The notes under the pieces were generated by a model. It made no database searches and was not told the origin of the DNA. It worked only from the letters and a program-made list of their open reading frames with translations. Below are positions 9,263 through 63,989 of a DNA stretch of 64,000 nt, piece by piece. Both the position numbers and the translations under genes were made by a program. Each line of letters starts with the position of its first letter. Position 1 is the stretch's first letter. This stretch comes from Alphaproteobacteria bacterium (GTDB lineage Bacteria; Pseudomonadota; Alphaproteobacteria; SP197), in contig OZ219918.1 in assembly GCA_964291415.2 (NCBI GenBank), positions 224,001-288,000 on the forward strand, in the 5' to 3' direction.

Positions 9263-9263
9263 G

Positions 9264-9875: not shown

Positions 9876-10035
9876 GGATCGTCTCCTCTTTCATGTCGCT
9901 TTCCGGCAGGAAACCCGGAAGCCGGGGCATCGGGAAACCTTGCCCGGGGGGAGTTCGGCTGAATCGTCAGCCCGGTGGCCGCAAGGATGCCATTGCAGGA
10001 CGCCGGCCACGTCGTTGGACGTTCCCCCGATTGCA

Positions 10036-12097: not shown

Positions 12098-12127
12098 TTG
12101 ACCGGACGCCAGTGCCGCATTCATAGT
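12098..12127 (+). promoter_or_regulatory. Candidate sigma70 promoter for the mini GIY-YIG/SIR2 operon
   Basis: TTGACC-N18-CATAGT, followed by AAGGAGG RBS before ATG 12150. Confidence 0.35.
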
Positions 12128-12149
12128 GCTGGGCCAAGGAGGACGCGTC

Positions 12150-15691: not shown

Positions 15692-15735
15692 ATTGACAGG
15701 AAAGGTCGGGACCGAGCAGATTGCCGATACGTGCC

Positions 15736-16992: not shown

Positions 16993-17001
16993 CTTCGCGC
17001 C

Positions 17002-17259
17002 ATGCTGATCATTCCCTGCCCGTGGTGCGGCGAACGCGACGAGAGCGAATTCAGCTATGGCGGCCCCGCGCGACCCTTGCCGGCACTGGATGCGGACGCG
17101 GCGGCCTGGCGCCGCGCCCTCTACTCCCATGACAACCCAAAGGGGTGGCGCGAGGAACTGTGGTTCCACGGCTTTGGCTGCCGGCAATGGATCGTCGTCT
17201 CCAGGCACACGGTGACCCAGGAGATTGCCGATAGCCGCCCAATGGAGCCCCCGCCGTGA
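17002..17259 (+). CDS. soxD: Sarcosine oxidase subunit delta family
   Basis: CPWCGERDESEF, NPKG, WFHGFGCRQW zinc ligands. Confidence 0.93.
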   Translation: MLIIPCPWCGERDESEFSYGGPARPLPALDADAAAWRRALYSHDNPKGWREELWFHGFGCRQWIVVSRHTVTQEIADSRPMEPPP

Positions 17260-20222
17260 CCGGCGGAGGCCAGACCCGCCGTCTGGCGGAGGGCGGACTG
17301 ATCGACCGCGCGCGGTCGCTGGCCTTCACCTTCAATGGCCGGACCCTGTCCGGGTACGAGGGCGATACCCTGGCTTCGGCCCTGATGGCCAACGGCGTCG
17401 ACGTGGTGGCGCGCAGCCTCAAGTATCACCGGCCGCGCGGCATCATGACCGACGGCCCCGAGGAGCCCAATGCCGTCGTCGCAATCGGCGAAGGTCCGTC
17501 GCGCACACCCAACCTCAAGGCCACGGAGGTCGTTCTCCACGATGGGCTCGTCGCACGGTCGCAGAACTGCTGGCCGTCCGTGGATCATGACGCGGGCGCC
17601 GTGGCGGGCCTCGCAACACCCCTGCTTGGCGCCGGGTTCTACTACAAGACGTTCATGGCCCCCCGCGCAGCCTGGCCACGTCTCTACGAGCGGCTGATTC
17701 GCCGTGCCGCCGGCCTGGGGCGTGCCCCGGAAGGCCATGACCCCGATCTCTACGAGCATCGGCACCGCCATTGTGATGTCCTCGTCGTCGGTGCTGGCCC
17801 GGCGGGGCTCGCGGCTGCACGTGTGTTCGCCCAGGCCGGGCTGCGTTTCGTGCTGTGCGACGAGCGACCAAGACCCGGCGGTTCCCTGACCGGCACGACG
17901 CAGCGCATCGACGGCGAGGCAGGCAACGCATGGGCGCAGCAGATCGCCGCGGACGTCGCTGCTTCACCGCGTGCGACGGTGTTGCCGGAGACGTGCGCCG
18001 TGTGGCTGGGAGATCATCGACTGGTGACCCTGGTCGAGCGCAGACGTGGCGCAGACGGCGTTGCCGAGCGGCTCTGGCTCGTTCGGCCACGCCATGTCGT
18101 GCTGGCGACCGGGGCGATCGAGCGGCCTCTTTGCTTCCCCGGGAACGACCGGCCCGGCATCATGCTGGCCTCGGCCGCCGTGGCCTACATCCACCGATAC
18201 GCCGTTGTGCCCGGCAAACGCGCGGTGATCCATACCAACAACGACTCCGGCTACGGCGTCCTCCAGCATCTCCGCGAGGCGGGAATCGACGTGAAGGCCG
18301 TCATCGATACGCGGCCCCGTGACCTGATCGGTGAAGCGGCGCTCAGCATGATCCGCGATGTCGACGTGCTGGCTGGCCACCGGATCGTCTCGACCGCCGG
18401 CCGTCACCGGCTCCGCCGCATCGATGTCGGGCCTGCTGACGGAGCCCGGCGATCCAGTGTCATCGAAGCCGATCTCCTGTGTGTCGCGGGTGGCTGGTCC
18501 CAGACGCTCCACTTGCTGGGTCATCGCGGCGGCACCATGCGCCACGAGGAACCGAACGCCGCCACTTCGGCCGCGGCACCCGGAGACGACGTGGCAATCG
18601 CGGGCGCCGCAGCCGGCGTCACGGGTCTTGCCGCATGTCTCGCCAACGGTACCAGAGTGGCCGGGGCGGTGCTCGAGGCGTTGGACCGGGAAGTCCCGGC
18701 GCTCCGGATCCCGGTGTCTGACGCCAAGACAGGGACGTTGTCGGGAAAGCCGAACGGTCCCTCCTGCCCGACCCTCGACGTCAGGCAGCAGCGCAGAGCC
18801 TTCGTCGATCTGCAGAACGACGTCACGGCCCTCGATGTGATGCGGGCGGTCGACGAGGGATACGGCGCCATCGAGCACCTGAAGCGCTACACGACGTCCG
18901 GCATGGGAACGGATCAGGGCAAGCTCGGCAACGTCATGACGATCGACATGGTTGCCGAAGCGACCGGCCAGTCGGCTGAAAGGATCGGCCACACGACATT
19001 TCGCCCGCCCTACACGCCGGTGACGCTGGGCGCGCTTGTCGGACACGCCAGGGGCGAGCGCCTGTTCCCGACCCGCCAGACCCCGTTCCACCGCCGTCAT
19101 CTGTCCAACGGCGCGCTGATGGAACTCGCGGGAGCCTGGCACTACCCGAAATGCTTTCCGCGCGACGGAGAAACGGTGGATGCCGCGATCGAGCGTGAAG
19201 TGCGGACCGTGCGCAACGCGGTCGGGTTCGTCGACATGTCCACCCTGGGCAAGTTCGAGATCATGGGCCCCGATGCCGGGGTCTTCCTCGATCGCGCCTA
19301 TGCCGGCCGACTCTCCACCCTTGCCGAGGGACGCTGCCGTTATGCGCTGATGTTGCGCGAGGACGGGGTCGTGCGCGATGACGGCACCGTGGCCCGATTG
19401 GCCGCCGATCGCTGGCACGTCACCGCATCGACGGCCCATGCCGACGACGTCTGGCGTCATCTCGAGCGCCTGCGACAGGTCGAATGGCCGGAGCTCGACG
19501 TCCTCCTCGTCGATGTCGGCGAACAGTGGGCCAGTCTTGCCATAGCCGGACCGCGCGCGCGTGATGTTCTCGCCGCCGTCACACCGGAACTCGACGTCTC
19601 GCCCGAGGCGCTGCCGTTCCTGGGTTGTCGGGAAACCAGGTTCGACGGCGTTCGCGCACGCGTCTTCCGAATCAGCTATTCCGGGGAGCTGGGCTTTGAG
19701 GTCTATGTCGGCGCACGGCACGGCGACCGGCTGTGGGATGCGGTGGTGGAGGCCGGTGCGCCCTTCGGCATCGCGCCCTACGGCGTCGAGGCCCTTGATG
19801 TCATGCGTATCGAAAAAGGCCACTGCGCCGGCAGCGAGTTCGACGGCCGCACGACACCGGCCGACCTGGGTCTGGGCCGCATGATCAAGCGTGACACAGG
19901 GTTCCTGGGTCACGCGCTTGCGCGCCAGCACTCCCTTCGTCAGCGTCTGATCGGGCTCGTTTCGGCGGACCGGCGCACGCCCATCCCCCGCGGCGCGATT
20001 CTCGTTGCCGGTGCGGCCCGGTCCCGGGCTCTCGGCCACGTCACCGCATCCGTCGCCAGTCCGACTCTCGGCCAGCCGATCGCATTGGCCATGCTGCAGG
20101 GATCAGTCAGCCCCGGCGACAGCGAACTCCGTGCCGTCTCGCCCGTCGCCGGCCTCGATGTCGCGGTCGAGATCAACGAATTGCCTTTCTACGACGCCGA
20201 TGGCGCCAGGATGCGCGCATGA
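17256..20222 (+). CDS. soxA: Sarcosine oxidase subunit alpha family
   Basis: GDTLASALMANG, RSLKYHRPRG, GFYYKTF, HLKRYTTSGMGTDQGK, GcvT-like C-terminus (DMSTLGK, RIEKG). Confidence 0.93.
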   Translation: MTGGGQTRRLAEGGLIDRARSLAFTFNGRTLSGYEGDTLASALMANGVDVVARSLKYHRPRGIMTDGPEEPNAVVAIGEGPSRTPNLKATEVVLHDGLVARSQNCWPSVDHDAGAVAGLATPLLGAGFYYKTFMAPRAAWPRLYERLIRRAAGLGRAPEGHDPDLYEHRHRHCDVLVVGAGPAGLAAARVFAQAGLRFVLCDERPRPGGSLTGTTQRIDGEAGNAWAQQIAADVAASPRATVLPETCAVWLGDHRLVTLVERRRGADGVAERLWLVRPRHVVLATGAIERPLCFPGNDRPGIMLASAAVAYIHRYAVVPGKRAVIHTNNDSGYGVLQHLREAGIDVKAVIDTRPRDLIGEAALSMIRDVDVLAGHRIVSTAGRHRLRRIDVGPADGARRSSVIEADLLCVAGGWSQTLHLLGHRGGTMRHEEPNAATSAAAPGDDVAIAGAAAGVTGLAACLANGTRVAGAVLEALDREVPALRIPVSDAKTGTLSGKPNGPSCPTLDVRQQRRAFVDLQNDVTALDVMRAVDEGYGAIEHLKRYTTSGMGTDQGKLGNVMTIDMVAEATGQSAERIGHTTFRPPYTPVTLGALVGHARGERLFPTRQTPFHRRHLSNGALMELAGAWHYPKCFPRDGETVDAAIEREVRTVRNAVGFVDMSTLGKFEIMGPDAGVFLDRAYAGRLSTLAEGRCRYALMLREDGVVRDDGTVARLAADRWHVTASTAHADDVWRHLERLRQVEWPELDVLLVDVGEQWASLAIAGPRARDVLAAVTPELDVSPEALPFLGCRETRFDGVRARVFRISYSGELGFEVYVGARHGDRLWDAVVEAGAPFGIAPYGVEALDVMRIEKGHCAGSEFDGRTTPADLGLGRMIKRDTGFLGHALARQHSLRQRLIGLVSADRRTPIPRGAILVAGAARSRALGHVTASVASPTLGQPIALAMLQGSVSPGDSELRAVSPVAGLDVAVEINELPFYDADGARMRA

Positions 20223-26815: not shown

Positions 26816-26831
26816 AACGGTGATCACCGTT
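26816..26831. promoter_or_regulatory. Perfect 16-bp palindrome AACGGTGATCACCGTT (operator variant)
   Basis: Same GTGATCAC core, about 35 bp upstream of the flavoprotein ATG. Confidence 0.6.
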
Positions 26832-26865
26832 GTCGTCCAATGATCCCGGGTGCAGTGGGGCTGTC

Positions 26866-28953
26866 ATGACATCGCATAACGAACCGCTGACGACACGCGA
26901 TTCTCGCTACGACATCCTTTTCGAACCGGTAGCGATCGGACCGGTCACGGCGAAGAACCGCTTCTACCAGGTTCCCCACGCGACGGGCACCGGGTGCGCC
27001 ATGGCCAACACGCGCGCCGGGATTCGCGCGGTCAAGGCCGAGGGTGGCTGGGCAGTCGTGTGCACGGGCTACTGTTCGATCCATCCGACGTCCGATGATC
27101 GGCACTATCCGTTCTCGAGCCTGTGGAACGACGCCGACGTCAAGGCCCAGGCCATCATGGTCGATGCGGTTCACGCCCACGGTGCGCTGGCCGGCGTCGA
27201 GCTGTGGCACGGCGGTGGCGTGGTCGCCAACAAGGTGACGCGCGAGGCACCGCTGTCTCCCTCGGGGATCGGCGAGCCGGTCTGGATCACCCACCCGGTC
27301 CAGCCGCGCACGATGGACAGGTCCGACATCGCTCACCTTCTTTCGTGGCAACGCGACGCTGCGAAGAGGGCGCGCTCGGCAGGGTTCGACATCGTCTACG
27401 TCTATGCCGGCATGGGATACCTGCCGTTCCAGTTTCTGCTGTCACGCTACAATAAGCGGACCGACAGCTATGGCGGCGCCTTCGAGAACCGCGCGCGCCT
27501 GCTGCGCGAGATGATCGAGATCACCCGGGACGCCGTCGGCGATGACTGCGCGGTCGCCGTGCGCCTCACCGCCGAAGAGAACATGGGTGTGAGGGGCTTC
27601 CGGGGCGAGGTGGAGGGCGAGGCTCTCCTGGACCTGATCGGCGACTTGCCCGACCTGTGGGACGTCAAGCTGGGCTTCACCGACGACGGCGTGACATCAC
27701 GCTTTGCCGAGGAGGCGTACCAAGAACCCTTCATCCGCTACGTCAAGACGAAAACCGGCAAGCCGGTCGTCGGTGTCGGTCGCTTCACCTCGCCCGACAC
27801 CATGGTGCGCCAGGTCCGCGAAGGCATCCTCGACCTGATCGGCGCGGCGCGGCCCTCCATCGCCGATCCGTTCCTGCCCAGGAAGATCGAGGAAGGCCGG
27901 ATCGACGAGATTCGCGAGTGCATCGGCTGCAACGTCTGCGTGGCGACCTATGCCGAGGGCGTGCCGATCCGCTGCACCCAGAACCCGACCATGGGCGAGG
28001 AATGGCGCCGTGGCTGGCATCCCGAGAAGATCCCGGCACGGGGCAGCGATGACGGTGTCCTCGTGGTGGGAGCGGGACCGGCTGGCCTGGAATGCGCCCG
28101 TGCCCTCGGCCAGCGCGGATATCGGGTGACTCTGGCCGAGGCGGGCAGGGACCTTGGCGGAAGGGTGCTGCGGGAAAGCCGCTTGCCGGGCCTTGCCGCC
28201 TGGGGCCGCGTCAGCGCCTGGCGGCTCGGTCGCCTCGAGACCATGCGCCATGTCGAGATCTATCGCGAAAGCCGCCTTGCCGCCGCCGATGTCGTGGAAT
28301 TCGGCGCCAGCAGGGTGGTGCTGGCCACCGGAGCGCGCTGGACGACTCATTTGCCGGAAAGCCCAGACGGCGGCGAACCGGAGGTCGCGGTTGAGGTCAT
28401 GACGCCCGATGACGTCATGGACGGCCGCACGCCATCGGGCGCCGTGTTCGTGCTCGATCTCGATCCCTACTACATGGGCGGCGTGATCGCCGAGAAACTG
28501 GCTCGCGACGGCCACCAGGTCAGCCTCGCCACATCCGCTCCGGTCGTCTCGCCCTGGACAGACTACACCGGTGAACAGCACAGGATCATGGTGCGCCTCT
28601 TGGAGTGCGGGATCGACGTCGTGACGGCCCATCGTCTTGTCGCGGTCGATGACCGCGGCGCGGAACTCGCCTGCGTCTACGGCGGACCATTGCGCAAACT
28701 GGCCTGCGATACCCTGATCGTTGTCGGTTCACGCGCACCGGTCGACGATCTCGAGCGGGCGCTTGCCGAACGTTCCGACGACGTTGAGGCCGCCGGCATC
28801 GCAGAAGTCCGGACCATCGGCGATCTCCATGCGCCGGGCGCGATCGTCCATGCGGTGGCTTCGGGACACCGCTTTGCCCGCGAACTCGACGTCAGGGGCC
28901 CCGTTGTGCGCGTCGAACCGGGCGTCGGCACGTACGCGACAGCGAGCAACTGA
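26866..28953 (+). CDS. Trimethylamine/histamine dehydrogenase-like iron-sulfur flavoprotein (OYE-like family)
   Basis: KNRFYQVPH, KAEGGW, NKRTDSYGG, ARPSIADPFLP, CIGCNVC..C 4Fe-4S motif, TQNPTMGEEWRRGWHPE. Confidence 0.92.
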   Translation: MTSHNEPLTTRDSRYDILFEPVAIGPVTAKNRFYQVPHATGTGCAMANTRAGIRAVKAEGGWAVVCTGYCSIHPTSDDRHYPFSSLWNDADVKAQAIMVDAVHAHGALAGVELWHGGGVVANKVTREAPLSPSGIGEPVWITHPVQPRTMDRSDIAHLLSWQRDAAKRARSAGFDIVYVYAGMGYLPFQFLLSRYNKRTDSYGGAFENRARLLREMIEITRDAVGDDCAVAVRLTAEENMGVRGFRGEVEGEALLDLIGDLPDLWDVKLGFTDDGVTSRFAEEAYQEPFIRYVKTKTGKPVVGVGRFTSPDTMVRQVREGILDLIGAARPSIADPFLPRKIEEGRIDEIRECIGCNVCVATYAEGVPIRCTQNPTMGEEWRRGWHPEKIPARGSDDGVLVVGAGPAGLECARALGQRGYRVTLAEAGRDLGGRVLRESRLPGLAAWGRVSAWRLGRLETMRHVEIYRESRLAAADVVEFGASRVVLATGARWTTHLPESPDGGEPEVAVEVMTPDDVMDGRTPSGAVFVLDLDPYYMGGVIAEKLARDGHQVSLATSAPVVSPWTDYTGEQHRIMVRLLECGIDVVTAHRLVAVDDRGAELACVYGGPLRKLACDTLIVVGSRAPVDDLERALAERSDDVEAAGIAEVRTIGDLHAPGAIVHAVASGHRFARELDVRGPVVRVEPGVGTYATASN

Positions 28954-34343: not shown

Positions 34344-35657
34344 GGGACGTTCCAGACCAGGGCGAGTTCACAAGAGTCGCCCAGTGCCGATAGAAGTTCA
34401 GCTGGTTGGTCTCCGAGATGTACGGCGAAAACCGTCCGGGACATCCCTCAGGTCCGTCCAGCAACGGTTGCCCGACGTTCATCTGGTAGTTGAAGTCGAG
34501 CCTCTGTCCCACGACGCCCCGCGTCGCCTCGGTCACCTGCTCGAAATTCTCGGTATCGTCCTGCGCGGCGATACCGCTGACTGCCTGGATGCGCGTGTAG
34601 TCGACACGCGCGAGGTCCTTGATGACCTTCGGCGCATCCCGATCGACCGCGCACCAGTTCCAGGCCTCCAGACGATCGGGGCCCTTTGGAAGCCACAGGT
34701 AGAATCCGATCGGCCGCAACGCGCTGAAGTCATTGAACGAAAGATTGGGGAACATGTTGCTGAACGAGGGCGCGTAGACACCGGCCTGGCGTTTCGGAAA
34801 GGCCCTGATCAGTCGCTGCTGACACTCCTCGACATAGTCGACCACTTCCGGCCCGTAGGTTTGGCGAGTTCCCGGTCGACCTCGTAGCGCTCGCCGTCGA
34901 AGACGACTCCCGTCATGCCATGGCCGTTGTCGAGGCCGATGTTGTAGTACCGGGCCTCCTTGCCGCGGAAGTTCGGATTGGCCGGATTGATCTGCCGGAT
35001 GTCGAGCTTGAACATCGACCCGTGCGAATAGGGAAGATGATAGGTGTCGCCCGCAAAGTTCTCGCTGGCGATCTTCCAGTTGGCGTTGAGGGAATAGCGC
35101 TGGATGCCGGGAATGAACTCGATTCCTCCGACCTGGCGTTCGATCATGACATCCAGGTACCAGCGGAGATCTCCCAGGAAGTCGTCGAGACTCCCGGCTC
35201 CGGCGTCCCAGTTGCCGAAGATCATGCCTCCGTAGATCGCCAGGTTCGGGACCTCGAGCAGACCCCACCGCTCCCTGTCAAGGCGATCGCCGTAGGCCTC
35301 CTTTTCCAGAGGTACGCCCTTGAGCCGACCGGTGTTGGAGTAGGTCCAGCCATGAAAGCTGCAGGTGAACTGGCGGGCATTGCCGCGGTCCGCCCGACAG
35401 ACCTTCATGCCTCGATGACGGCACGAGTTCAGAAACGCCCGGATGATCCCGTCTTCTCCGCGACACACGAGAACGGGATCCTCACCCATGTAGGCCGCCA
35501 TGTAGTCCCCGGGCCTGGGGACTTGCGATTCATGACCGAGGAAGAGCCAGCAGCGTGCGAACACGCGCTCCAGCTCTACCTGGTAGATATCCGGGTCGAA
35601 GAATATCCTGCGGCTGACGAGTCCTTCATCGATCCTGACGTAACGGTCCGCCTCCAT
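34312..35657 (-). CDS. Rieske ring-hydroxylating dioxygenase alpha subunit, single frameshift near 34861
   Basis: CRHRG..CSFHGW Rieske motif, NWK..ENFAGDTYH..SH iron ligands, C-terminal QDDTEN and SETNQLNFY in the other frame; one extra A in an AAA run restores it. Confidence 0.9.
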
Positions 35658-35820
35658 GGGCCTCCCTCGATCGGTTCGAAGCCGACGATACGCCAACAGT
35701 ACCGGAATCCCGATCGAAACCCCAACGCGAGCCCGAAACTTCAGGACAGCTGCCGGCGAACGGCACCGGTCGACGAACGGGCTGCGATGGACCGGGACGA
35801 GAACCGGCCCGAGCGCGGGC

Positions 35821-36708
35821 CTAGTCGCCGAACCGGAACACCGCCGACATGGCGCAATGGTCGGGATGCGGATCGCGCCGTGGCTCTTCGCGGAAGGATC
35901 CCGGCGCCAGCATCGCCTGCGCGCCGCCTCCGGCCACCATGTGATCAATGAACGCCGGAAAGCGTGGATCGCAGCGGAACGGCACGTCCTTCGTCAACAG
36001 CAGCAGAGGCGCCGAGGCTGGCGAGAGCAGCCGCCACGCCCAGTCGTCGGCGAGCGTCAGGCGGCGGTTGAAATCTCCCAGGATGACGAAGGGCTGAGCC
36101 TGGGCCCGGCGGGTGTCGGCCCACGCCTTCAACTCCTCGATCTGGCCGCGCAGCGTCGCGCAGGTTTCCGCGCTCCCGCTGTCGCCGTCCTGACCGGCGC
36201 CCCAGCACCCGGTCTTGAGATGGACCGAGAGCAGGCGCAGTTCCCGGTCTTGCGACGTCACGACGATGTCGGTCGCCCATCGCTGGAACGCGTCGCCGGC
36301 GCCCAGCGTTGTCAGGTCTCCGTTGCGACGGTATTGGACGCCGTGCCTGATCGCGAACCCCGTCGCCAGGTGTCCGAGCCGTGCCTGAGGTCTGTCCCAG
36401 CAGGCCGGGCCGTTCTCCGCCGGCGGACGCCGCGACACTTCGACCTGCCAGTCGGATGCCGGAAACACCCGGTGCGCCGCTGCCACATTTTCCACCTCCT
36501 GGAAGGCGACGATATCGGCGTCCAGTTCGGCGACCCGCCCGGCGAGGACCGCGTAGTCGGCAGCGCTGCGCCCGACGCAGCCGGCGCCGTCGCTGTCGTC
36601 CAGGTGTTCCAGGTTCCAGGCCGCAATGCGCAGTTCATCGCCCGATCCCGATTGCGGCGCGAACGCCAGGACCAGGCACGCCAACACCCCCCATCCGGCA
36701 ACACGCAT
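35821..36708 (-). CDS. Secreted endonuclease/exonuclease/phosphatase family protein
   Basis: Signal peptide, AWNLEH, FQEV, VHLKTGC, GDFN, DHC. Confidence 0.9.
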   Translation of the reverse strand: MRVAGWGVLACLVLAFAPQSGSGDELRIAAWNLEHLDDSDGAGCVGRSAADYAVLAGRVAELDADIVAFQEVENVAAAHRVFPASDWQVEVSRRPPAENGPACWDRPQARLGHLATGFAIRHGVQYRRNGDLTTLGAGDAFQRWATDIVVTSQDRELRLLSVHLKTGCWGAGQDGDSGSAETCATLRGQIEELKAWADTRRAQAQPFVILGDFNRRLTLADDWAWRLLSPASAPLLLLTKDVPFRCDPRFPAFIDHMVAGGGAQAMLAPGSFREEPRRDPHPDHCAMSAVFRFGD

Positions 36709-36760
36709 CGTCGTCTCCTTCGCCTTCCGGTCCGCAACGCCGTTCCTGCAGGACGGGCCG

Positions 36761-38293
36761 CTATCGGAGGAGGGCGCGTTCCTCCGTCCTCTGCCATGCC
36801 TCGCGATAGCTGCGCTGGTAGGTGTGGAAGGGATCGCTGGTGACGGCGTAGTCCCACACCGGCGGGCGGCCGTGCCTGTTGGCCTCGAAGATCGTCGTGC
36901 GCCGCCGGACGCTCTCTTCCACGAGGCCCGGCAGGTCGGCCACGTCCCACTGCCTCAGGATCTCCTGATGCAGGTCCTCCCGTGTCGCGGCATGGGCGGC
37001 ATCCTGCGCCAGGTCGCGACGCTCTTCGGGGTCCCTGGCGAGATCGAACAGCAGGGGGGCCGTCGTCTCGCAGTGAACGAACTTGTGGCGGCCGCGCCTG
37101 ATCATGAACCACGGTGCCGGCACGCCCTCGCCGCAGTACTCCGCGAGCACATCGCGCGGGGCGCCCGCGTCGTTTCCGCGCAGAACGTGCGCGAGGCTCC
37201 TGCCGTCGACCGGACCTGCGATGCTGCCGGTCTCCTCGTCGCCGGCAAGCTCCGCCAGCGTCGGGAGCATGTCGACGAGCGAGACGGGAGTCCGCACCCG
37301 TTTCGCAGCAAAGGCAGCGGGACAGTGGAACACGAGAGGCACCCGTTCTGCCCACTCGAAGAAGGTGCGCAACCCCCAGAGGCCGCGCTCTCCCAGCATG
37401 TTGCCGTGGTCGGCGGTGATGATGACGACGGTGTCGCTATCGAGGCGTGAGGCCTCGAGCGCGCCGAGGATCTGGCCGATCCTGTCGTCGATGTGACTGA
37501 GCATCGCGTAGTAGGCGTGACGTGCCCGGCGCACATGATCGTCGGTCACGCCGGCCTGCCCCATGCCGCCGTACTCGTGGAGATAGCGACTCAGTTCGTC
37601 ATGATCATCGACCGGGATCGGCGCGACCGCCGGCATGGGGATGTTCCCGTCGTCGTAACGATTCCAGTACTCGGCCGGCGAGGCGAAGGGAGGGTGGGGC
37701 TGGATGAACGAGACGGTCATCAGGAAGGGCCGGTCGGCCTCCTCGCGGGCCAGCTGGTAGATCCTGTTGACGGAGGTGAAGGTCACCTCGTCGTCAAAGT
37801 CGATTCCCAGGCAGCGCACGCAGGGGCCCGCCTCGATCACTTCGTCGAGATTCGGATAGTCGGGAAATCCCTCGTCCTCCCAGCGCGCGCCTCCGGGTGG
37901 CGGGCCCCAGCCGAAATCCGACGGCACCACGTCGGTCGTCAAGCGCTCCTCGAAGCCGTGCAGCTGATCGGGGCCCACGAAGTGCATCTTTCCGGAAAGA
38001 ATGGTCTGGTAGCCCGCCAGGCGCAGGTGGTGGGCAAAGGTGGGAACACTCGCCGGAAGCTCGCTGCCGTTGTCGTAAACACCGACCTTCGAGGGCAGGA
38101 GCCCTGTCAGGAACGAAGCGCGGGACGGTCCGCACAGGGGAGCGTTGCAGTACGCATTCTCGAAGACGATGCCCTCCTCGCCGAGCCGCTTCATGTGGGG
38201 CGCCCTGATCGTGCCGTCGCCGTACATGGGCAGCGCCAGGGCGCTCATGAAGTCGGCCATGATGATCACGATGTTGGGTTGGTTCCTGGTCAT
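36761..38293 (-). CDS. betC: Choline-sulfatase-like sulfatase
   Basis: CGPSR formylglycine motif, GKMHFVGPDQLHGFEERLTTD and PTFAHHLR typical of BetC. Confidence 0.8.
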   Translation of the reverse strand: MTRNQPNIVIIMADFMSALALPMYGDGTIRAPHMKRLGEEGIVFENAYCNAPLCGPSRASFLTGLLPSKVGVYDNGSELPASVPTFAHHLRLAGYQTILSGKMHFVGPDQLHGFEERLTTDVVPSDFGWGPPPGGARWEDEGFPDYPNLDEVIEAGPCVRCLGIDFDDEVTFTSVNRIYQLAREEADRPFLMTVSFIQPHPPFASPAEYWNRYDDGNIPMPAVAPIPVDDHDELSRYLHEYGGMGQAGVTDDHVRRARHAYYAMLSHIDDRIGQILGALEASRLDSDTVVIITADHGNMLGERGLWGLRTFFEWAERVPLVFHCPAAFAAKRVRTPVSLVDMLPTLAELAGDEETGSIAGPVDGRSLAHVLRGNDAGAPRDVLAEYCGEGVPAPWFMIRRGRHKFVHCETTAPLLFDLARDPEERRDLAQDAAHAATREDLHQEILRQWDVADLPGLVEESVRRRTTIFEANRHGRPPVWDYAVTSDPFHTYQRSYREAWQRTEERALLR

Positions 38294-38478: not shown

Positions 38479-39186
38479 TCAACCCCCTTCTCCTGTTGGA
38501 TGAAGACTCTCCAACCGGTTGAGCCAGTCGGAAAAGTGAGGGCATTGCGTGCACATGCGCTGCAGGCCGATTTCCAGTGCGGCGAGAATACCCAGAAGTG
38601 GTTTCTCATATCCGTCAATCAGAGCCATGATCCGCTTCGACGGCGCTCCTTCCGGCGACTCATCGATCTCTTCCGGCGTCGGGAAGGTGTTCCTGATGTC
38701 CTGCAACCGCGGAGTCAGGTCCGGCCGCTCGATTCCAGTGCCGAACCTTTCGCAGTCGCTGAACAGCAGCGCCTCGTACTCGTGCATCATCACATACGGA
38801 ACGAATCGGCGCGTGTCGAAGCCGCCGCCCATTTCTCCGGCGATGTCTGCCAACAGGGCGTCCTGAATCGACGAGGCTCTGTCGGCAAAGGGACGCTGTG
38901 ACGCTTCCGCACGTCCCGGCCACGCTCCACCACCGCTCTGCGGAAGGCCGTAGTAATCCACCATCGTGGTGACGATGCGGTCCTGATCCTCGTGGAGATG
39001 GCGCACGATGTCCCGTCGCGCAGAGGGCCAGCCTCTGATGCCCCCTCGGTGGTCGCGCTGGCGCGCGTTTCCCATCAACCGCGCCCCGACCAACGAAAAG
39101 CCGCGGTCATAGAGGTGCGGCGCGAGAACCTCGTTGACGAAACTCTCTTCAGTCTGACCTTCGACGTGGACGAGGAGACGTGTCAT
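38479..39186 (-). CDS. DUF4276 family (TOPRIM-like) protein
   Basis: VEGQTEE, TTMVDYYGLP, HEYEALLFSD, PEEID..PSKRI, CPHFSDWL. Confidence 0.88.
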   Translation of the reverse strand: MTRLLVHVEGQTEESFVNEVLAPHLYDRGFSLVGARLMGNARQRDHRGGIRGWPSARRDIVRHLHEDQDRIVTTMVDYYGLPQSGGGAWPGRAEASQRPFADRASSIQDALLADIAGEMGGGFDTRRFVPYVMMHEYEALLFSDCERFGTGIERPDLTPRLQDIRNTFPTPEEIDESPEGAPSKRIMALIDGYEKPLLGILAALEIGLQRMCTQCPHFSDWLNRLESLHPTGEGG

Positions 39187-40220
39187 GCCTCGGGGGTGGG
39201 ACGCCCACCGAATTCATTCTTCTCCCAAAGTTGCCCGAGGCTGTACTCGTTCAGCCAGTCCCTCAGCCTCTCCGGTTCCAGCCTCGTCAGCTTGGTCGCC
39301 CCGTCCTCCCGATCAGCCACAAGCACGTCTTCCGGGTCGAAGTGATCGAGCAACAAGGGCGACTGTGTGGCGAGAATGACCTGAGTCTCTACGGATGCTT
39401 GTTTGACGAGCGATGCCAGAAGCGTGACTGCGTAGGGGTGCAAGCCGAGTTCCGGTTCGTCCATGAGGATGACGGACGGGCGGAGCGTCGCGGGCAGGAA
39501 CAGCAGCGTCGCGAGGGCGATGAATCTCAAGGTTCCGTCAGAAAGGGACGACGCGTCGAAATAGGCGTCCGACTTCCGATGCCGCCATTCAAGACGGATG
39601 GTGTCTTCATTCAACGCCAAGGGTTCCAGTTCAAAATCGTCGAAGAACGGTGCAGCGAGCCGCACCGTGCGTCGGATCATGCGGTACGCATCGGGGTGCT
39701 TTTGGCGCAGGCGATACAGAACGGCGGCGACGTTCGATCCATCCGCCTTCAGGTGGCGGTTGTCGTTCAGATCGGTCGTTTTCTTCATCGGAGACAACGG
39801 GCCGGTATCCTGAAAATGGTAGCAACGGAACTGACGGACTACGGCGAGTAGAGTCTTGGGAAAACTCCAGTTCTGGTCCCCCACAACAGGAAGCCTTCGT
39901 GCAACAAGCCTGTCGCCTGCAACTGCAATCAACTCTTGTCTGTACACCCTATGTATCTCATTGAATTTTATTTCGAAACTGATTCTCTCTGTGTTCTTGG
40001 CTCCAAAGTGCAGGATCTTGTCCGCTCCACCCGAGCGTACGACATGGTCGTCCACTTCACTGTCGTCACGAAGGGTGGTGCGCAACAGCGCCATGGCGCC
40101 GAAGACATTCGATTTGCCCGATCCGTTGGGTCCGATCAGCACGTTGATCCGGCCGAGACGCAATTCGAGACACCTGATGCTCTTGAAGCCTTCGATGGTG
40201 ATTCGGTCGAGCGCGGGCAT
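39183..40220 (-). CDS. AAA_21/ABC-type ATPase coupled to DUF4276
   Basis: GFKSI, GPNGSGKSN, YHF, LSDGTLR, DEPELGLHP, TQS; ATGA overlap with the downstream gene. Confidence 0.92.
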   Translation of the reverse strand: MPALDRITIEGFKSIRCLELRLGRINVLIGPNGSGKSNVFGAMALLRTTLRDDSEVDDHVVRSGGADKILHFGAKNTERISFEIKFNEIHRVYRQELIAVAGDRLVARRLPVVGDQNWSFPKTLLAVVRQFRCYHFQDTGPLSPMKKTTDLNDNRHLKADGSNVAAVLYRLRQKHPDAYRMIRRTVRLAAPFFDDFELEPLALNEDTIRLEWRHRKSDAYFDASSLSDGTLRFIALATLLFLPATLRPSVILMDEPELGLHPYAVTLLASLVKQASVETQVILATQSPLLLDHFDPEDVLVADREDGATKLTRLEPERLRDWLNEYSLGQLWEKNEFGGRPTPEA

Positions 40221-56887: not shown

Positions 56888-58508
56888 TCATCCCGGAGAC
56901 GTTTCATGAGCGGTTCGCTGGTTGGAACTGCCGGCCTTGATCAGGTCGGCAGCCTTCTCGCCGACCATGATCGAGGGCGCGTTGAGATTGCCGCTGGTGA
57001 TGGATGGAAAGATCGAACTGTCGACAACCCTCAGGCCGGAAAGACCGCGGACCCGGCATTCGGGATCGACCACGGCAAGGTCATCCGTTCCCATCCTGCA
57101 GGTGGAGCAGGGGTGGTAGCCGGTTTCGGCCTTGTGCCGGATCACCTCGTCGATGTCGGCATCGCTCCGGGCGCTTGCCCAGGTGTCCTCTTCGCGTGTC
57201 CGATAGGGATCAAGGGCCGCCTGCATGGCAATGTCGCGCGCCTGGCGGACACAGATCCTGAGGTCTTCGAGGTCCGAGGGTTCACTCAGGAAACGGAAAT
57301 CGACGGCGGGCCGGATGGCGGGGTCGGCGGACCGGAGTCTCACTTCGCCGCGACTGCGCTCCCGCAGGGTCCCGACACACATGGTGAAACCGCCGGTATC
57401 GGACGGGATGTCGTGGTCGCGGAGAAAGAACGGAAAGAAGTGATACTGGATGTCCGGGTGCGCCACGCTTTCGCGGGTCTTCGTGAAGGCGCCGGTGAAG
57501 ACGCCGTTGGTGGCGCAGATTCCGCTGCGGTTCAGGAACCAGCGGGCACCGGCCAGAGCCTTGGACAGCGGACCCGCATACCGGTTGAGCGAATGGCGAA
57601 CGGGACCCGCGAACGGGATGTGAAGCTCGACGTGTTCCTGGAGGTTCTGTCCGACGCCGGGCAGGTCGTGACGCACCGCGATTCCGACGTCCGAGAGGTG
57701 GGAAGCCGGACCGATGCCCGACAGCATCAGGATGTGCGGCGACCCGAAGGGGCCGGCCGACAGGATGATATCCCGGGAGCAGTGGACGACTTCGACGTCA
57801 CGGCCCCGTCTGATCCTGACGCCGATGGCGCGGTCCTCGTCGATCTCGATTCCGACAACTTCGGCATGGGTGCGGATATCGAGGTTGGGACGATGGCGCG
57901 CGGGTTCGAGATAGGCACTGGCGGTGCTGACGCGCCTGCCGTCGGCGATCGAGGCATCGAACCAGCCCATGCCTTCCTGATTCTCGCCGTTGAAATCGTC
58001 GCTGAGGCGAAACCCCGCCTCGAGTCCGGCCTCGACGAAGGCATCGCTCATCGGCAGGTGAAACGACAGGGGCCCCGTGCGCACCGGTCCGCTTCCGCCG
58101 CGAAAGGCCGTTTCGCCGCCGGCGTGTGTTTCGAGCCGCTTGAAGAAGGGCAGCACGTCGCGGAACGACCAGCCCGTGGCGCCTTCGTCCTGCCAGCGGT
58201 CGAAGTCCATCGGGTGCCCCCTCAGGAACGCCATGCCGTTGATGGCGGACGAGCCACCAAGACCCTTGCCGCGGGGCTGGAAGATCCGCCGCCCCGCCAT
58301 GTTGTCCTGGGGCTCCGACCACCAGGCCCAGTTGTAGGATCCGCTCGGTCCAGTTCAGATAGTAGCCAAGCGGCATGTCGATCGACCAGTGCCGCGCCCT
58401 GCCGCCGGCCTCGAGGAGCAGCACCCGTATCTCCGGATCCTCGCTCAGACGCGCCGCCAGCGCGCAGCCCGACGATCCGGCTCCGACGATGATGTAGTCC
58501 GGCGTCAC
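56888..58508 (-). CDS. GMC oxidoreductase, choline dehydrogenase-like, single frameshift near 58346
   Basis: [17 protein letters not shown] in one frame; [25 protein letters not shown] and SGNLNAP in the other. Confidence 0.88.
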
Positions 58509-58823
58509 GGGCCTTGCCAGGCAGGACGCCGTGAAGGCATTTGCCCCTCGCACAAGGCTTGATTCCGGGAGCGCCCAGTCCCACTGGCCATTCTGCCATG
58601 TCCTCAAAGAAGAACGTGATCCTTGTGTACCGGGTTTCAGCCATGGATCGCAATTCGCCGGCCGCTCGCCACCAGCCCGGTCCGGGCGGCCCGGCAGACT
58701 TCAAGCCCGTGCAGCGCGACGGTGTCGTGTCGGCGGGGCCTGCGGGACCTGTTGCCGAGGGACGGTCCGACAAGCATCATGCCAGGGGTCCGCGTCAGCG
58801 GACGGCATGTGGGAGACAAGCAG

Positions 58824-60029
58824 ATGGTTCACCTCAATCGCATGAAGTCGTGGCCCTGGGCCTACGATGACGTCATCGATCTGCCCCTGACGCTCTACGA
58901 GACGGAACCCTGGACGCCGGCCAGACCCCTCGCCGAGTCCCGAATCGCCCTGGTGTCGACGGCCGCCGTTCATCGCCGCGACGACAAGCGTTTCAGTCTG
59001 TCGGCCCGGGATTTCCGCCGTCTTGGAACGCATGACCGGGATCTCATCCAGAGCCATCACTCGGGCGACCATGACCGCACCGGCTTTCAGCAGGACCTCA
59101 ACCTGATCCTGCCGTTTGATCGCCTTGGCGAACTGGTCGAGGCCGGCGAACTCGGATCCATCGGGCCGACACACTATTCGTTCCTCGGCGGATCGCCGCC
59201 CGACCAGATGGAACGCGCCGCCCGTAAGGCGGCCGGTGAGATGAAGGCCGAGGGCGTCGACACGGTGCTGCTCTGTCCCGTTTGACCGTTCTGCACGCGC
59301 GCCGTGAGCGGGCTTGCCCATTACCTCGAGGAAGACGGACTGACGACGGTGACGCTGGCCTTTGTGCGCCCTCATGTCGAAGCCATGCGCCCGCCGCGGG
59401 CGCTGTGGGTGCCGTTCGAGCTCGGCAAGCCCTTCGGCGAGCCCATGGATGCGCCGTTCCAGATGCACGTTCTGCGCGCCGCGCTCGAGCTCCTCAAGGA
59501 ACCCAGCGGACCGGTCCTGGTCGACTACCCCGGACCGGTTTCCGACTACGACGGGAAGCTTGGCTGGTCGTGCCGTTCCCCGAAGCTGCAATCCGATGCC
59601 GAACGAACTGACCCTGCCACTTTGCTGGCCCGCATCGGTCAGGAAGACCGTACCATCCGGTCTCTCTACACCAGGGCCGTGGCCAGCCGCGGGCGCTCGA
59701 GTGTCGGTGCCAGCGGTGTGCCGCTTGACGATCTCGCTGGCTTCCTGACGGGTTTCCTCGCCAAGGACCCACCGGCCAATCCGGTCAGGAGCCTCTCCCT
59801 TCCGCAGACGTTCCGTTTTGCCCTTGACGATCTGATGGCCTACTACACCGAGGCCAAGAGCTTCGAGGGGGAACTCACCACGAGCACCGACCTGGGCCGA
59901 TGGTTCTGGGACGAGACGGCGGCGGGGCGCCTCCTGATCGAGCTCGAGTACGCATGCCGCAGCAGTTCGAACAGGACATTGCGCTGGATGTCCGAGATCG
60001 GGATTCTCGTTCCGTTCTATCCGGAATAG
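58824..60029 (+). CDS. Glycine/sarcosine/betaine/D-proline reductase selenoprotein B family protein with in-frame UGA (Sec154)
   Basis: RIALVSTAA, D.N..P.DRL.EL, VDTVLLCPV-TGA-PFCTRAVSGLAHYLEEDG, RPPRALWVPF..G.PFG; both halves in one frame; GGGAGA RBS. Confidence 0.85.
59286..59324 (+). promoter_or_regulatory. Candidate bacterial SECIS element
   Basis: Two alternative hairpins 3' of the UGA: CCGTT-CTG-CACG-CGCGC-CGTG-AGCGG and GTGA-GC-GGG-CTTG-CCC-A-TTAC. Confidence 0.5.
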
Positions 60030-60151: not shown

Positions 60152-61188
60152 CTACTTCATGACGTTCGTCCACACCTGGTCGTAGAGCCTCACGACATCG
60201 TCTTCGCAGGCAGGCACGAACTCGGGATCCGGCGTTCCTTCCGGAGCGTTGAGTTCCGGCGCCGTGGCGAGTTCGGGATCGAAGTATTGCGCCGCGCCCA
60301 TGATGCCCCCGTTCACCCCGACATAGTTCGATTCAAGGGCGATGTTCTCCGGCACCATCATGAAGTCCATGAAGATCATGGCATTCTCGATGTTCTCGGC
60401 GCCCCTGGGCACGGCCAGGTTGTCCATCCACCCGGTATAGCCCTCCCGGGGATGCGCAAACGCCACTGACGGCTTTTCAGCGCGTGTGCGGATGGCGTAT
60501 CCGTCCCAGTTCATCGTCGCATCGACCTCACCCGAGACGATCAGTTCCTTCGGGTCCATGGAGTAGGAGCGCACCCATTCCTTTTGCCGCAGAAGCAGTT
60601 CCTGAACCTGGCGCATTTCGTCCGGATTTGAGTTGCAGCGCGGGAACCCGAGATAGCGCAAGGCCATGTTGATGACCTCCACGGAGTCCTGGAACATGTT
60701 GATGCGGCCCTTGAGCACGTCCGGTGGATCGAAGAGGACGGCCAGCGTGTGGATGTCGCCGTCAAAGACGTCCGTGTTCACGTTGAAGCTTGTGGTGCCC
60801 CACATCCAGGGAATGGAGTAGTGGCGGCCTGGATCCCAGTAGACATCGACCCAGCGTGGCTCGACGTTCTTGAAGTTGGGGAGTTCGTTGGGCTCGACAC
60901 GCAGAAGCAGATCCTCCTTGATCAGGATCTCGACGAGATAGTCGCCCGGCACGATGATGTCATAGCCGGTCGCTCCGGCCATCATCTTGGCGAGCAGGTC
61001 TTCGTTGCTTGCGAACGTATCGATGTTGACCGTGATCCCGGTCTCGGCTTCGAACTTCTCGATGAGCTCGGGACTGGTGTAGTCCGCCCATGTGTAGAAG
61101 TTGACCTCTCCCTCGGCGCTGGCCCGGGGACGCCGAGCGAGGCGACCAGCAAGATGGCCCCCGTCACGCCAAGCAATTGTCTCAACAT
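60152..61188 (-). CDS. Polyamine ABC transporter substrate-binding protein (PotD/PotF-like), frameshift near 61124
   Basis: GGAGG RBS and signal peptide in one frame, then VNFYTWADY..FEAETGI..SNE, GYDIIVP, PWMWGTT, W.DNLAVP; one extra G restores it. Confidence 0.88.
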
Positions 61189-61655: not shown

Positions 61656-61696
61656 TTCGTGTGGTAAATCAGTGCTCGCAATACCGGAGTCCCCGC

Positions 61697-62896
61697 ATGT
61701 CGTCCTCTGTCACCTATCGACAGATCACCTTTCGCCTGCTGCCCGAGAAGCGCAGCACCTGGCGGCGGCTGGAGGCCATGCTCGACACGCAGCGCTGTCT
61801 CTACAACGCGGCGCTGGAAGAACGGATCGACTGCTACCGCAAGACCGGCAAGTCGCTCACCTACTTCGATCAGGCGAAGTCCCTGACCCTTTGCCGCAAG
61901 GCGCTGCCGGACATGGCAGCGGTGCCGGTGGCCATTCAGCGCGGGACGCTCAAGCGCCTCGATCATGCCTTCAAGGGCTTCTTCCAGCGGGTGAAGCAGG
62001 GTGGGGCCGGGTTCCCCCGGTTCCAGGGACGCCGGCACTTCAACAGCCTTTCCGTGGTCTCCGGCGTCAGGGTCGAGGGCAGTCGCCTGCGCATCCCCGG
62101 CCTGGGCTGGCTGACCATCCGCCGCCGGGGCGGCAATCCCTGGCCGCAGGGCACGCCGGTGAGTGCGGTCCTCAAGCGCGAGGAGGGACGCTGGAAGGCT
62201 GTGGTGTGCCATGCGGTGTCGCTGCCGGAAGGGGACGACAACGGCCATGCCGTCGGCGTGGACATGAATGCGGGCCAGGTGGCGACCTCGGACGGGGAGA
62301 TCCTGCGCCTGGAGAGGAGCCGTCGTCTCGAGGCCCGTGCCCGGCGCTACGCCAAGCAGCTGGCGCGGCAGCGCCGTGGCAGCAGGCGGCGGGAGAAGAC
62401 GCGGCGGCGTCTGGCGAAGACCACCCGGCACATGGCCATGAAGCGCCATGACTGGCAGCACCACGTCAGCCGCCGGTTGGCGGATGCGGCGGGAACGGTG
62501 GTGGTCGAGGATCTCAAGGTCCGCACCATGACCCGCAGCGCCAGGGGCACGAAGGAGGAGCCGGGACGTCACGTGCGCTCCAAGGCGGGTCTCAACCGTG
62601 TCATCCTGGAGACGGGCTGGTCGTCGTTCCGGAGAATGCTGGACTACAAGGTTCACCGCGTCATCGCGGTGAACCCGGCCTACAGCAGCCAGACCTGTGC
62701 AGCGTGCGGCGTCACGAGCGCCCAATCACGCAGGACGCGGGACCTGTTTCAATGCGTGGCGTGCGGCCATGCGGATCACGCCGACCTCAATGCAGCGGCG
62801 AACATTCTGGCCTCGGGGACTGAGGCATCTGCGCGGGGAGGTTGCCGGGTTGCCGGGCCTGTGAACCGCGAAATCGATCAGAGGATGGCAGCATGA
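61697..62896 (+). CDS. tnpB: RNA-guided endonuclease TnpB (399 aa)
   Basis: FRLLP..RCLYNAAL N-terminus, GFPRF, RuvC D (GVDMN), E (VEDL), D (HADLNAAANI), zinc finger CAAC..CVAC. Confidence 0.95.
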   Translation: MSSSVTYRQITFRLLPEKRSTWRRLEAMLDTQRCLYNAALEERIDCYRKTGKSLTYFDQAKSLTLCRKALPDMAAVPVAIQRGTLKRLDHAFKGFFQRVKQGGAGFPRFQGRRHFNSLSVVSGVRVEGSRLRIPGLGWLTIRRRGGNPWPQGTPVSAVLKREEGRWKAVVCHAVSLPEGDDNGHAVGVDMNAGQVATSDGEILRLERSRRLEARARRYAKQLARQRRGSRRREKTRRRLAKTTRHMAMKRHDWQHHVSRRLADAAGTVVVEDLKVRTMTRSARGTKEEPGRHVRSKAGLNRVILETGWSSFRRMLDYKVHRVIAVNPAYSSQTCAACGVTSAQSRRTRDLFQCVACGHADHADLNAAANILASGTEASARGGCRVAGPVNREIDQRMAA

Positions 62897-63149: not shown

Positions 63150-63989
63150 TCAGCGGAACATCAAGGAGCCGCTGCGTTGTTCGATGGCGTCGGAGACGAC
63201 GATGCCACCGCGAAAACGGTCATATGTAGTATCCAGATAGTGGTACTGGAGCGCTTTCAACTGGCCGCCATAGCGCTGCCGAAGGCCTCCTGCGGCGGGC
63301 TGTACGTGAACATTGCTCACGTGGCCTGTGCAGTAGGCGTGGCAGGCAACGGGATAGAGCAGCGCGGAGCACAGGATATCGCAGACTTGGAGGCCGGCGT
63401 GGTTGTCGCTGTGGCCGAAGGTTGGAAGTTCGACGGTCCGAGGGTACGCCCGGGCAGTTTGGCTGAACTTCTGGGTGAAGATCGAGTGGGACACCTTGAC
63501 GTTCTTGAACTTGTTGCGGCTGTCGGCGATGCATGCGCCGACCTCGTTCACGTGGGACAGATAGTGGTCGAAGTAGGTGCAGATGCCTTGGATCGAAGCC
63601 GTGTAAACGGACGTGGGAACGAAGGGCATTCCGATGCCCTTCACGCTGATGCGCGCGACCAACCGAACGTCGTGGCGCCACAGCATTCCGAAAATGCGGT
63701 CCAGGAATCCGACTGCGTGACGTCGCTGACGAGCGTTGCCGCGTAACGCGTTGTTCCGGATATCCGCCCCCTTGATCTCCGGCAGGATCCTGTCAAGGAA
63801 TCTGGCCGATGGGTACGGCAAGTTGGGGAAGTACCGATACTTCAGGTCGAGGAAATCAGCGGTAAAGGCGAGGAGGTTTGCGGCTTCCGCGAAGAGTCCA
63901 CCGACGACCAGGACGGGTTGGTCGTTAGGCTGCGGCGGGTCGGACAGCGGTCCGAGGTCTCCCGCTTCGTCGATAAAGCAGATTCTCAT
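63150..63989 (-). CDS. DUF3800 domain-containing protein
   Basis: FIDEAGD N-terminus, EIKG, and GLQVCDIL (QxxD) motif. Confidence 0.85.
   Translation of the reverse strand: MRICFIDEAGDLGPLSDPPQPNDQPVLVVGGLFAEAANLLAFTADFLDLKYRYFPNLPYPSARFLDRILPEIKGADIRNNALRGNARQRRHAVGFLDRIFGMLWRHDVRLVARISVKGIGMPFVPTSVYTASIQGICTYFDHYLSHVNEVGACIADSRNKFKNVKVSHSIFTQKFSQTARAYPRTVELPTFGHSDNHAGLQVCDILCSALLYPVACHAYCTGHVSNVHVQPAAGGLRQRYGGQLKALQYHYLDTTYDRFRGGIVVSDAIEQRSGSLMFR

Follow-up and report, generated by a model that had tools for sequence, protein, structure and literature searches.

An in-frame TGA codon at positions 59283-59285 of a 64,000-nucleotide stretch of DNA from an alphaproteobacterium (contig OZ219918.1, forward strand; the whole stretch is called the window below) separates two open reading frames (ORFs), and raises the question whether this codon ends one gene or encodes selenocysteine (Sec) in the middle of a single, larger one and, in the latter case, what kind of protein is produced. 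A first-pass annotation, made without database searches, had proposed a hidden, stand-alone selenoprotein of the GrdB/PrdB superfamily, i.e. a relative of selenoprotein subunits of glycine/sarcosine/betaine and D-proline reductases, perhaps acting on betaine-type compounds. The analysis described here indicates that nucleotides 58824-60029 are very likely a genuine selenoprotein gene, as judged from sequence. The reading that we regard as probable, taken as a whole, is that of a single 401-residue Sec gene whose product is a self-contained relative of PrdB and GrdB with a presumed reductive cleavage activity.

When translated, the segment 58824-60029 of the forward strand is one frame, of which TGA 59283-59285 is the sole interruption; the ORF finder reports the two halves, 58623..59285 and 59304..60029, in the identical frame, as the first-pass annotation had stated. 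With TGA read as Sec (U) and ATG 58824 as the start, the product has 401 residues with Sec at position 154 (U154), and the read-through peptide is the one given earlier (LLCPVUPFCTRAVSGLAHYLEE around U154, in the context VLLCPV-U-PFCTRAVSGLAHYLEE). The starts of homologues agree with ATG 58824 (for example, locus L006 of the set described below begins with MVHLNRMKSW), and the tblastn matches of L001-L008 span query residues 1-401. The six frames of the window (G+C content 64.1%) were also scanned for in-frame TGA codons flanked on each side by at least 60 codons with coding-like G+C content at third codon positions, and TGA 59283-59285 was the only site returned (1/1). It should be noted that TGA is the ordinary stop codon of 32 of the 42 Pfam-supported ORFs of the window, and the commonest stop among them, and therefore the genetic code in use is the standard one.

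One scan of a species-representative genome collection gave 586 confirmed relatives, from which 80 loci (designated by L numbers), all Sec forms, were kept. They contain 84 homologous copies, since four loci have a second copy, and TGA is present at the same column in 84/84, within the motif P-[VI]-U-P-x-C-[TS]-x-A-V. The hosts are mainly alphaproteobacterial metagenome-assembled genomes, but also include Desulfobacterota, Dehalococcoidia, Entotheonella, Binatia and an Olavius symbiont; the nearest relatives are 93-95% identical to the window's protein and about 90% identical at the DNA level. The Sec column was also examined in an alignment (A2) of the query with 25 database proteins spanning it, many of them full length (380-419 aa). 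Cys occupies the column in 20 of these 25 proteins, Gly in two, Trp in one and Arg in one, while one lacks the segment. A full-length Cys form is, for instance, WP_353536255.1 of Cognatishimia. As for the odd residues, Trp is found in P0053 and P0175, Arg in P0269 and Gly in P0216 and P0228; the Trp may stem from translation under another table, and the Arg and Gly may reflect a one-base change from TGA or TGC.

Both sides of the TGA are under purifying selection, as indicated by the ratios of non-synonymous to synonymous substitution rates (dN/dS) against eight relatives, which are 0.05-0.11 on the upstream side (codons 1-153) and 0.10-0.20 on the downstream side (codons 155-401). The gene thus shows the combination by which selenoproteins are recognized, an in-frame UGA aligned with Cys in homologues and conserved coding sequence on both flanks. 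Most relatives in the databases are of fragment size, because gene callers halt at the conserved TGA. A word-index search returned 807 relatives; of the best 120, nearly all are 221-301 residues long and cover the post-TGA part only; an exhaustive search returned 1823 relatives at E <= 0.001 and 133 at E <= 1e-30, which mostly begin at query residue ~161-163, and cluster P0122 is a 153-168-aa N-terminal piece. Public records label the N-terminal stub 'selenoprotein B glycine/betaine/sarcosine/D-proline reductase', list the C-terminal part as a 'hypothetical protein' and call the Cys forms 'GrdB family protein' or 'D-proline reductase (dithiol) PrdB'. In the records examined, the family is therefore stored as a 153-residue stub plus a 241-residue 'hypothetical protein', which amounts to a systematic annotation failure.

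The RNA element that follows the UGA is a probable selenocysteine insertion sequence (SECIS). The core of the candidate hairpin is a block, 59295-59312, in which synonymous sites are frozen. Counted from the TGA, each of the codons +4 to +9 (Thr-Arg-Ala-Val-Gly-Gly) is almost always written in the same way across phyla (ACG in 77/83, CGC in 79/82, GCC in 77/85, GGC in 59/63 and GGG in 52/54), with codon entropies of 0.2-0.5 bits except at Val +7, which lies in the predicted loop (1.36 bits). By comparison, other invariant residues of the same genes that are encoded by four- to six-fold degenerate codons show 1.3-2.3 bits, with 1.6-2.3 bits for Arg +28, Arg +38, Gly +47 and Pro +49. The core pairs 18-28, 19-27 and 20-26 are kept in 78/78 distinct rows, the loop positions G22 and U23 do not vary, and the hairpin is 79% paired, as opposed to 25-57% in slid controls; the predicted energy of the hairpin is -11.8 kcal/mol. 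The element is taken as a probable SECIS because of the constraint on its synonymous sites, and not because of its folding energy.

Some of the genomes carry a second Sec paralogue, arranged in tandem in L032, L058 and L072, where the copies are ~1.2 kb apart (the TGA codons of L032 are at 10418 and 11647); in L048 the TGA codons are at 2122 and 10409. In the second copy the motif diverges (FDLGRP), and the hairpin differs slightly in sequence.

A link between the family and the Sec machinery emerged from the neighbouring ORFs, which were collected within ~7.5 kb of the gene in all loci and clustered by BLASTP, the cluster representatives being scanned with Pfam. Clusters of SelB, SelA and SelD were found in 8/80, 7/80 and 6/80 loci, respectively, and any sel protein gene in 11/80. 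A tRNA-Sec was predicted by ARAGORN in 10/80 loci, and makes up 10 of the 18 tRNA genes detected across all of them. In L055 the tRNA-Sec lies ~120 nt 5' of the selenoprotein gene, and in L026, L038, L051 and L067 the end of selD is immediately 5' of the gene start on the same strand. An oxidoreductase-SelD fusion directly upstream was found in L071 only. This fusion (7718-9934 of that locus, forward strand) joins a pyridine-nucleotide-disulphide oxidoreductase (TIGR03169, 459.9 bits, cut-off 310) to SelD (selD TIGR00476, 297.8 bits, cut-off 125), and the tRNA-Sec of the locus is at 5704-5799.

The protein itself is only a distant relative of PrdB and GrdB. It passes the Pfam GRDB model PF07355 (33.5 bits, gathering threshold 22, E = 3.6e-8, residues 27-151), in agreement with the superfamily assignment made in the first-pass annotation. 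The best family for the query is the NCBIfam PrdB equivalog TIGR04483, with 99.3 bits against a cut-off of 300 and residues 30-226 matching profile positions 20-220 of 238. The same profile is the best match for 47/47 family members, all of which score under the cut-off (best E-value 7e-44). The GrdB-type subfamily model TIGR01918 fails, with 39.7 bits against 65.45 over profile positions ~213-403 of 431. Since the PrdB match stops at residue 226 of 401, the long C-terminal extension that had been noticed earlier is real; its 175 residues (227-401) have no match in Pfam or NCBIfam. An AlphaFold2 (AF2) model built on a 47-sequence alignment folds residues 1-401 as one unit (pLDDT 88.9, pTM 0.90). 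In this model strand 147-151 leads into helix 155-170, with U154 and C157 of the UxxC site (U154-P-F-C157) at the helix N-terminus, whereas residues 245-247, around Cys250, have a pLDDT < 50.

Besides the UxxC cysteine, the invariant or near-invariant residues include H78, S80, D84, R85, R100, R192, Q213, D336, Y341, E343 and W360; the conserved residues of the C-terminal domain are D336, Y341, E343, W360 and T365. The extra Cys three residues before Sec, to which the first-pass annotation had drawn attention, is indeed present as C151. It is carried by the window's close clade plus L046, L060 and L063 and is thus clade-specific, so that CxxUxxC is not a motif of the family.

Compared with PrdB of Clostridium sticklandii and Clostridioides difficile, the present protein has a homologous alpha/beta domain and a UxxC site, listed for PrdB in review tables (PMC13188914), with Sec at about the same position. 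It differs in its length (401 residues versus a 238-position profile), owing to the added helical domain, and in that no prdA (the pyruvoyl proprotein), prdC or proline racemase gene was found nearby. In addition, its hosts are mainly aerobic Alphaproteobacteria rather than Stickland fermenters, which bears out the non-Stickland setting suggested earlier. With GrdB, GrdF and GrdH (PF07355, TIGR01918) it shares the Sec-x-x-Cys site and the Pfam GRDB assignment, and, by analogy, its selenolate would be expected to attack a substituted acetate at the alpha-carbon. However, the match to the GrdB profile is confined to the C-terminal half, the ~210-residue N-terminal half being unaccounted for; the second Cys of the GrdB UxxCxxC motif, as that motif is given in the review (PMC13188914), is absent; and no grdA, grdE (or grdG/grdI), grdC or grdD was found nearby. 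FarB of Cloacibacillus, a GrdB-like protein proposed for reductive fluoroacetate defluorination (PMC10838667), offers a precedent for the possible cleavage of bonds other than C-N in alpha-substituted acetates by GrdB-type selenoproteins. As described there, FarB nevertheless keeps a GrdE-like partner, FarE, and feeds GrdA/GrdC in an anaerobe, while neither partner is near the present gene.

The search for partners gave the same picture throughout, and the stand-alone character that had been proposed for the gene was borne out. No GrdA, GrdE/PrdA-type or GrdC/D family was found among the 49 + 48 window ORFs scanned with Pfam, and no Prd/Grd partner family turned up when representatives of neighbour clusters occurring in 3 or more of the 80 loci were scanned. 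What is found near the gene are other metabolic enzymes. In 12 loci, of which 11 belong to a single marine Rhodospirillaceae-like clade and one is L007, the gene immediately upstream on the same strand encodes a family III CoA-transferase; in one example of tight operon linkage, a CoA-transferase stop codon is ~15 nt 5' of the selenoprotein start. A gene for D-2-hydroxyacid dehydrogenase follows immediately downstream in 10 loci, from this marine clade and L071, and MmgE/PrpD proteins are encoded in both L007 and L071. In L007 the operon reads PrpD-like protein / RipB-Ich-like enoyl-CoA hydratase / acyl-CoA dehydrogenase / CoA-transferase / selenoprotein, and in L063 succinyl-CoA-ligase-like subunits / aldehyde dehydrogenase / GMC oxidoreductase / selenoprotein. 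In the clade of the window, GMC oxidoreductase genes are transcribed divergently from the selenoprotein gene; L040 and L063 have them on its own strand. These recurrent neighbours point to small organic acids and CoA esters; they are lineage-specific, and no substrate is fixed by them.

The genes that flank the selenoprotein gene in the window are both frameshifted. The divergent GMC (choline-dehydrogenase-like) gene at 56888-58607 on the reverse strand has a 1-nt insertion near 58343 in comparison with L001, L002 and L005, so that its FAD-binding N-terminus is in the frame of ORF 57798-58607 and the remainder in ORF 56888-58300; it is either a pseudogene or the product of an assembly indel. 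The downstream gene for a PotD-like solute-binding protein (60152-61188, reverse strand) is frameshifted between ~61126 and ~61132, with the signal peptide (MLRQLLGV...LVASLG) and the mature protein (RASAEGEVNFYTW) in different frames, and is intact in L001 and L002. The divergent choline-dehydrogenase-like gene had been the ground for suggesting a betaine-type substrate. This suggestion is not supported: the GMC gene is broken in the window and scores below the cut-offs of the choline dehydrogenase models (562.8 vs 605; 517 vs 732), a betaine-specific role finds no specific support, and the recurrent neighbours of the family are CoA-transferase III, D-2-hydroxyacid dehydrogenase, MmgE/PrpD, acyl-CoA enzymes and GMC proteins. 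We consider a betaine-type substrate quite unlikely.

In PrdB and GrdB, Sec attacks the alpha-carbon of the bound substrate and Cys resolves the resulting selenoether (PMC13188914 and general knowledge). By analogy, the following course can be proposed for the present protein. UGA 59283-59285 would be decoded as Sec with the aid of the RNA element in the next ~35 nt of coding sequence; the U154 selenolate would attack a carbon or sulphur of the substrate; Cys157 would resolve the adduct, leaving a selenenyl-sulphide; and a thiol system such as thioredoxin would re-reduce it. In sum, a small carboxylic acid or an acyl-CoA would be cleaved reductively, and the fused helical domain may supply the substrate-binding role that belongs to PrdA/GrdE, the separate pyruvoyl/partner subunits, in the clostridial enzymes. 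Reductive C-X cleavage on an organic acid or acyl-CoA, with the presumed catalytic cycle, reductant and substrate class, seems to us plausible, if a shade short of probable. A more far-reaching proposal can be put forward only tentatively, and we hold it to be a minority possibility: the abundant 'PrdB' of aerobic marine and soil bacteria might be a self-sufficient, pyruvoyl-independent selenoenzyme for a new reductive cleavage in organic-acid/acyl-CoA catabolism, and the main reason why many Alphaproteobacteria keep Sec machinery. It would then work with CoA-transferase III, D-2-hydroxyacid dehydrogenase, MmgE/PrpD or GMC oxidoreductases and would not be a proline reductase. If Sec machinery is indeed kept mainly for 'PrdB', the selA-selB-selC-selD islands around the gene would be explained.

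Several observations weigh against a single Sec gene with this function. The 64 kb of the window hold no tRNA and no sel gene, which leaves the host's Sec machinery unseen, and the same is true of the 21-kb loci of the seven relatives scanned with ARAGORN (L001-L003 and L005-L008). Hairpins directly downstream of the TGA had been noted in the first-pass annotation; one is predicted at 59293-59317, but it is no more stable than shuffled sequences (z = 0.35; 125 of 200 shuffles fold equally well). Covariation is not significant either, since 250 of 500 shuffles have at least as many compensated pairs, a test that is uninformative because the element hardly varies. Moreover, RNAalifold favours another register, shifted by two bases, so that the register is ambiguous, and no Rfam match was obtained for the whole window at the gathering threshold or for 59150-59450 at E <= 10. 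On the side of function, no neighbourhood is shared across the family (excluding the gene's own halves and shadow ORFs, the largest cluster covers 15/80 loci, mostly from one marine clade), and the substrate inference is therefore weak. The mechanism is backed by no structural relative in the PDB: the best hit by sequence profile was the unrelated CopM (E = 0.087), and the best by fold (Foldseek) had E = 6.5e-3 with TM <= 0.24, none being found at E <= 0.001. Finally, that both flanking genes are broken suggests indel errors in the assembly or local decay, and the locus may therefore be affected by one or the other.

These points bear on how the TGA is to be understood. If it were a true stop, the locus would hold two genes, or a decaying pseudogene, with a GrdB-like fragment of 153 residues and a 241-residue protein that has a start of its own. 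This is how nearly all public records, including those of close relatives, are annotated (~241-aa and 153-aa entries), and the prominence of TGA among the stops of the window and the frameshifts in both neighbours would fit with it. However, the two parts are always adjacent and in frame, and the TGA coincides with the column in which single-chain homologues have Cys. The GTG that would start the downstream ORF is the codon of Val +7, and this codon is GTT, GTC or GTA in 30/85 copies, and therefore no conserved downstream start exists. In addition, both parts are under purifying selection, the family is linked to sel genes and tRNA-Sec, and the predicted fold is that of a single unit. Although homologues are indeed split in the annotation, as had been foreseen as a possible objection, no start of the second part is conserved among them, and the two-gene explanation appears to us highly improbable. 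The residues other than Cys at the Sec column (W, R and G in the five entries mentioned above) could be taken to mean that no selenium is involved and that a reassigned code or near-cognate read-through turns the TGA into Trp, Cys or Gly. Yet TGA terminates most of the ordinary ORFs of the window, sel genes occur near the family, and a conserved RNA element stands immediately 3' of the codon; decoding without selenium is thus extremely improbable.

If the codon is accepted as Sec, two other views of the protein must be compared with that of a substrate-cleaving PrdB/GrdB relative. The main rival, in our opinion rather unlikely but deserving attention, is that the protein is a general selenol/thiol-disulphide oxidoreductase, serving in redox buffering or in the reduction of disulphides of proteins or low-molecular-weight compounds. 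The placing of UxxC at a helix N-terminus in the predicted model, as in thioredoxin-fold redox proteins, would suit such a role, as would the lack of any pyruvoyl partner found to activate an amine substrate, the gene context that differs among lineages, and the listing of the 'PrdB' family among thiol-dependent redox selenoproteins in Table 3 of PMC1088965. On the other hand, many conserved polar residues (H78, S80, D84, R85, R100, R192, Q213, D336, Y341 and E343) are located away from the UxxC site, the conserved 175-residue extra domain suggests a defined small-molecule site, and, where the context is conserved, the gene is in tight operon linkage with metabolic enzymes. It is very unlikely, instead, that the protein is a true B subunit of D-proline or betaine/sarcosine/glycine reductase whose partners (PrdA/GrdE, GrdA, GrdC/D) are encoded elsewhere in the genome. 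PrdB is the best profile, the JGI and NCBI names agree with it, and sarcosine oxidase and other methylated-amine genes are present at 15.7-29 kb of the window; but the scores are under the equivalog and subfamily cut-offs, no GRDA or GrdE/PrdA-type family was found in the window ORFs or in the scanned clusters, the C-terminal domain is in neither profile, and the hosts are mostly aerobic Alphaproteobacteria rich in oxygenases. A self-contained Sec protein distantly related to PrdB and GrdB therefore remains the preferred reading.

A family matching this description has long been listed in selenoprotein surveys. In the Sargasso Sea survey, 'Proline reductase PrdB' (pfam07355, UxxC) is recorded with 42 sequences (PMC1088965; Zhang, Fomenko and Gladyshev 2005), and in the Global Ocean Sampling (GOS) surface waters the pfam07355 family counts 235 Sec and 110 Cys forms (PMC2398784; Zhang and Gladyshev 2008); the passages concerned in both papers list it among the most abundant marine selenoproteins. 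Five 'PrdB' copies, and no GrdA or GrdB, are reported in the text on the Olavius delta-1 symbiont (PMC1976440; Zhang and Gladyshev 2007), and locus L033 of the present family comes from an Olavius-associated Delta 1 genome. Among bacterial genomes, 'proline reductase' is tabulated for Anaeromyxobacter and Geobacter (PMC1794560, Table 3). The present gene agrees with the family as described in these sources in pfam07355, UxxC, the presence of Sec and Cys forms and the occurrence in Olavius delta-1, and is probably included in it, as judged from these descriptors and not from a sequence comparison. As far as the main passages of the surveys go, the family is treated there as D-proline reductase, and the C-terminal domain, the missing PrdA and the gene context are not mentioned. 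In the passages covered by a literature search, no paper was found to distinguish the family from true PrdB or to deal with its function. Because surveys have listed the 'PrdB' family since 2005, the gene thus joins a selenoprotein family that is catalogued, uncharacterised and mis-named.

The function of the family has been named after D-proline reductase, although the defining partners of that enzyme were not found nearby. If the 'PrdB' of the surveys is the present family, it is among the commonest marine selenoproteins, and its chemistry bears on selenium use by aerobic ocean bacteria. Starting points for biochemistry are offered by the CoA-transferase / selenoprotein / 2-hydroxyacid dehydrogenase operons, by the sel-gene islands and by the Cys forms in cultivable roseobacters. 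The features of the gene and its product are collected in Table 1.

Table 1. Position of the selenoprotein gene in the window and of the sites and domains recognized or predicted in it.
Feature	Position	Strand	Basis and remarks
Shine-Dalgarno-like GGGAG	58811..58815	+	8 nt 5' of ATG 58824; read from sequence
Complete 401-residue PrdB/GrdB-like selenoprotein gene	58824..60029	+	ATG 58824, Sec codon 154, stop TAG 60027-60029; translation
PrdB/GrdB-homologous alpha/beta domain (residues 30-226)	58911..59501	+	TIGR04483, PF07355; alternating strands/helices in AF2 model
Cys151 codon, 'extra' Cys at -3	59274..59276	+	clade-specific; Cys in 12/85 copies, 4/47 rows of alignment A4
Predicted selenocysteine codon U154 (in-frame TGA)	59283..59285	+	TGA at same column in 84/84 copies in 80 loci
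Cys157 codon, UxxC partner of Sec	59292..59294	+	invariant, 47/47 in A4
Candidate SECIS hairpin, CGUGA apical loop	59293..59317	+	in coding sequence, 10-34 nt 3' of UGA; synonymous-site constraint
Cys250 codon, third nearly invariant Cys, interdomain linker	59571..59573	+	Cys in 43/47 rows of A4
All-helical C-terminal domain (residues 258-393)	59595..60002	+	helices in AF2 model; family-specific, not in PrdB/GrdB profiles

Some other features of the window may be mentioned. A gene for an IS605-type OrfB/TnpB protein (Cas12f-like TNB domain) is located at 61661-62896 on the forward strand, 1.6 kb downstream of the selenoprotein gene, and is adjoined by a DUF3800 gene at 63150-63989; the two together indicate a mobile or variable stretch at the end of the window. 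Genes of methylated-amine and choline-ester metabolism are found at 15721-20222, 26830-28953 and 34809-38293. They comprise sarcosine oxidase beta/alpha-like proteins, an OYE-like flavoprotein of the dimethylamine-dehydrogenase type, Rieske oxygenase subunits and a sulphatase; these genes are 20-40 kb away from the selenoprotein gene and are unlinked to it in relatives. An AAA_21/AbiEii-like ATPase gene and a DUF4276 gene at 38479-40220 on the reverse strand form a pair that resembles anti-phage modules of the OLD/Gabija-like type, and a SIR2_2-domain protein is encoded at 12098-13456.

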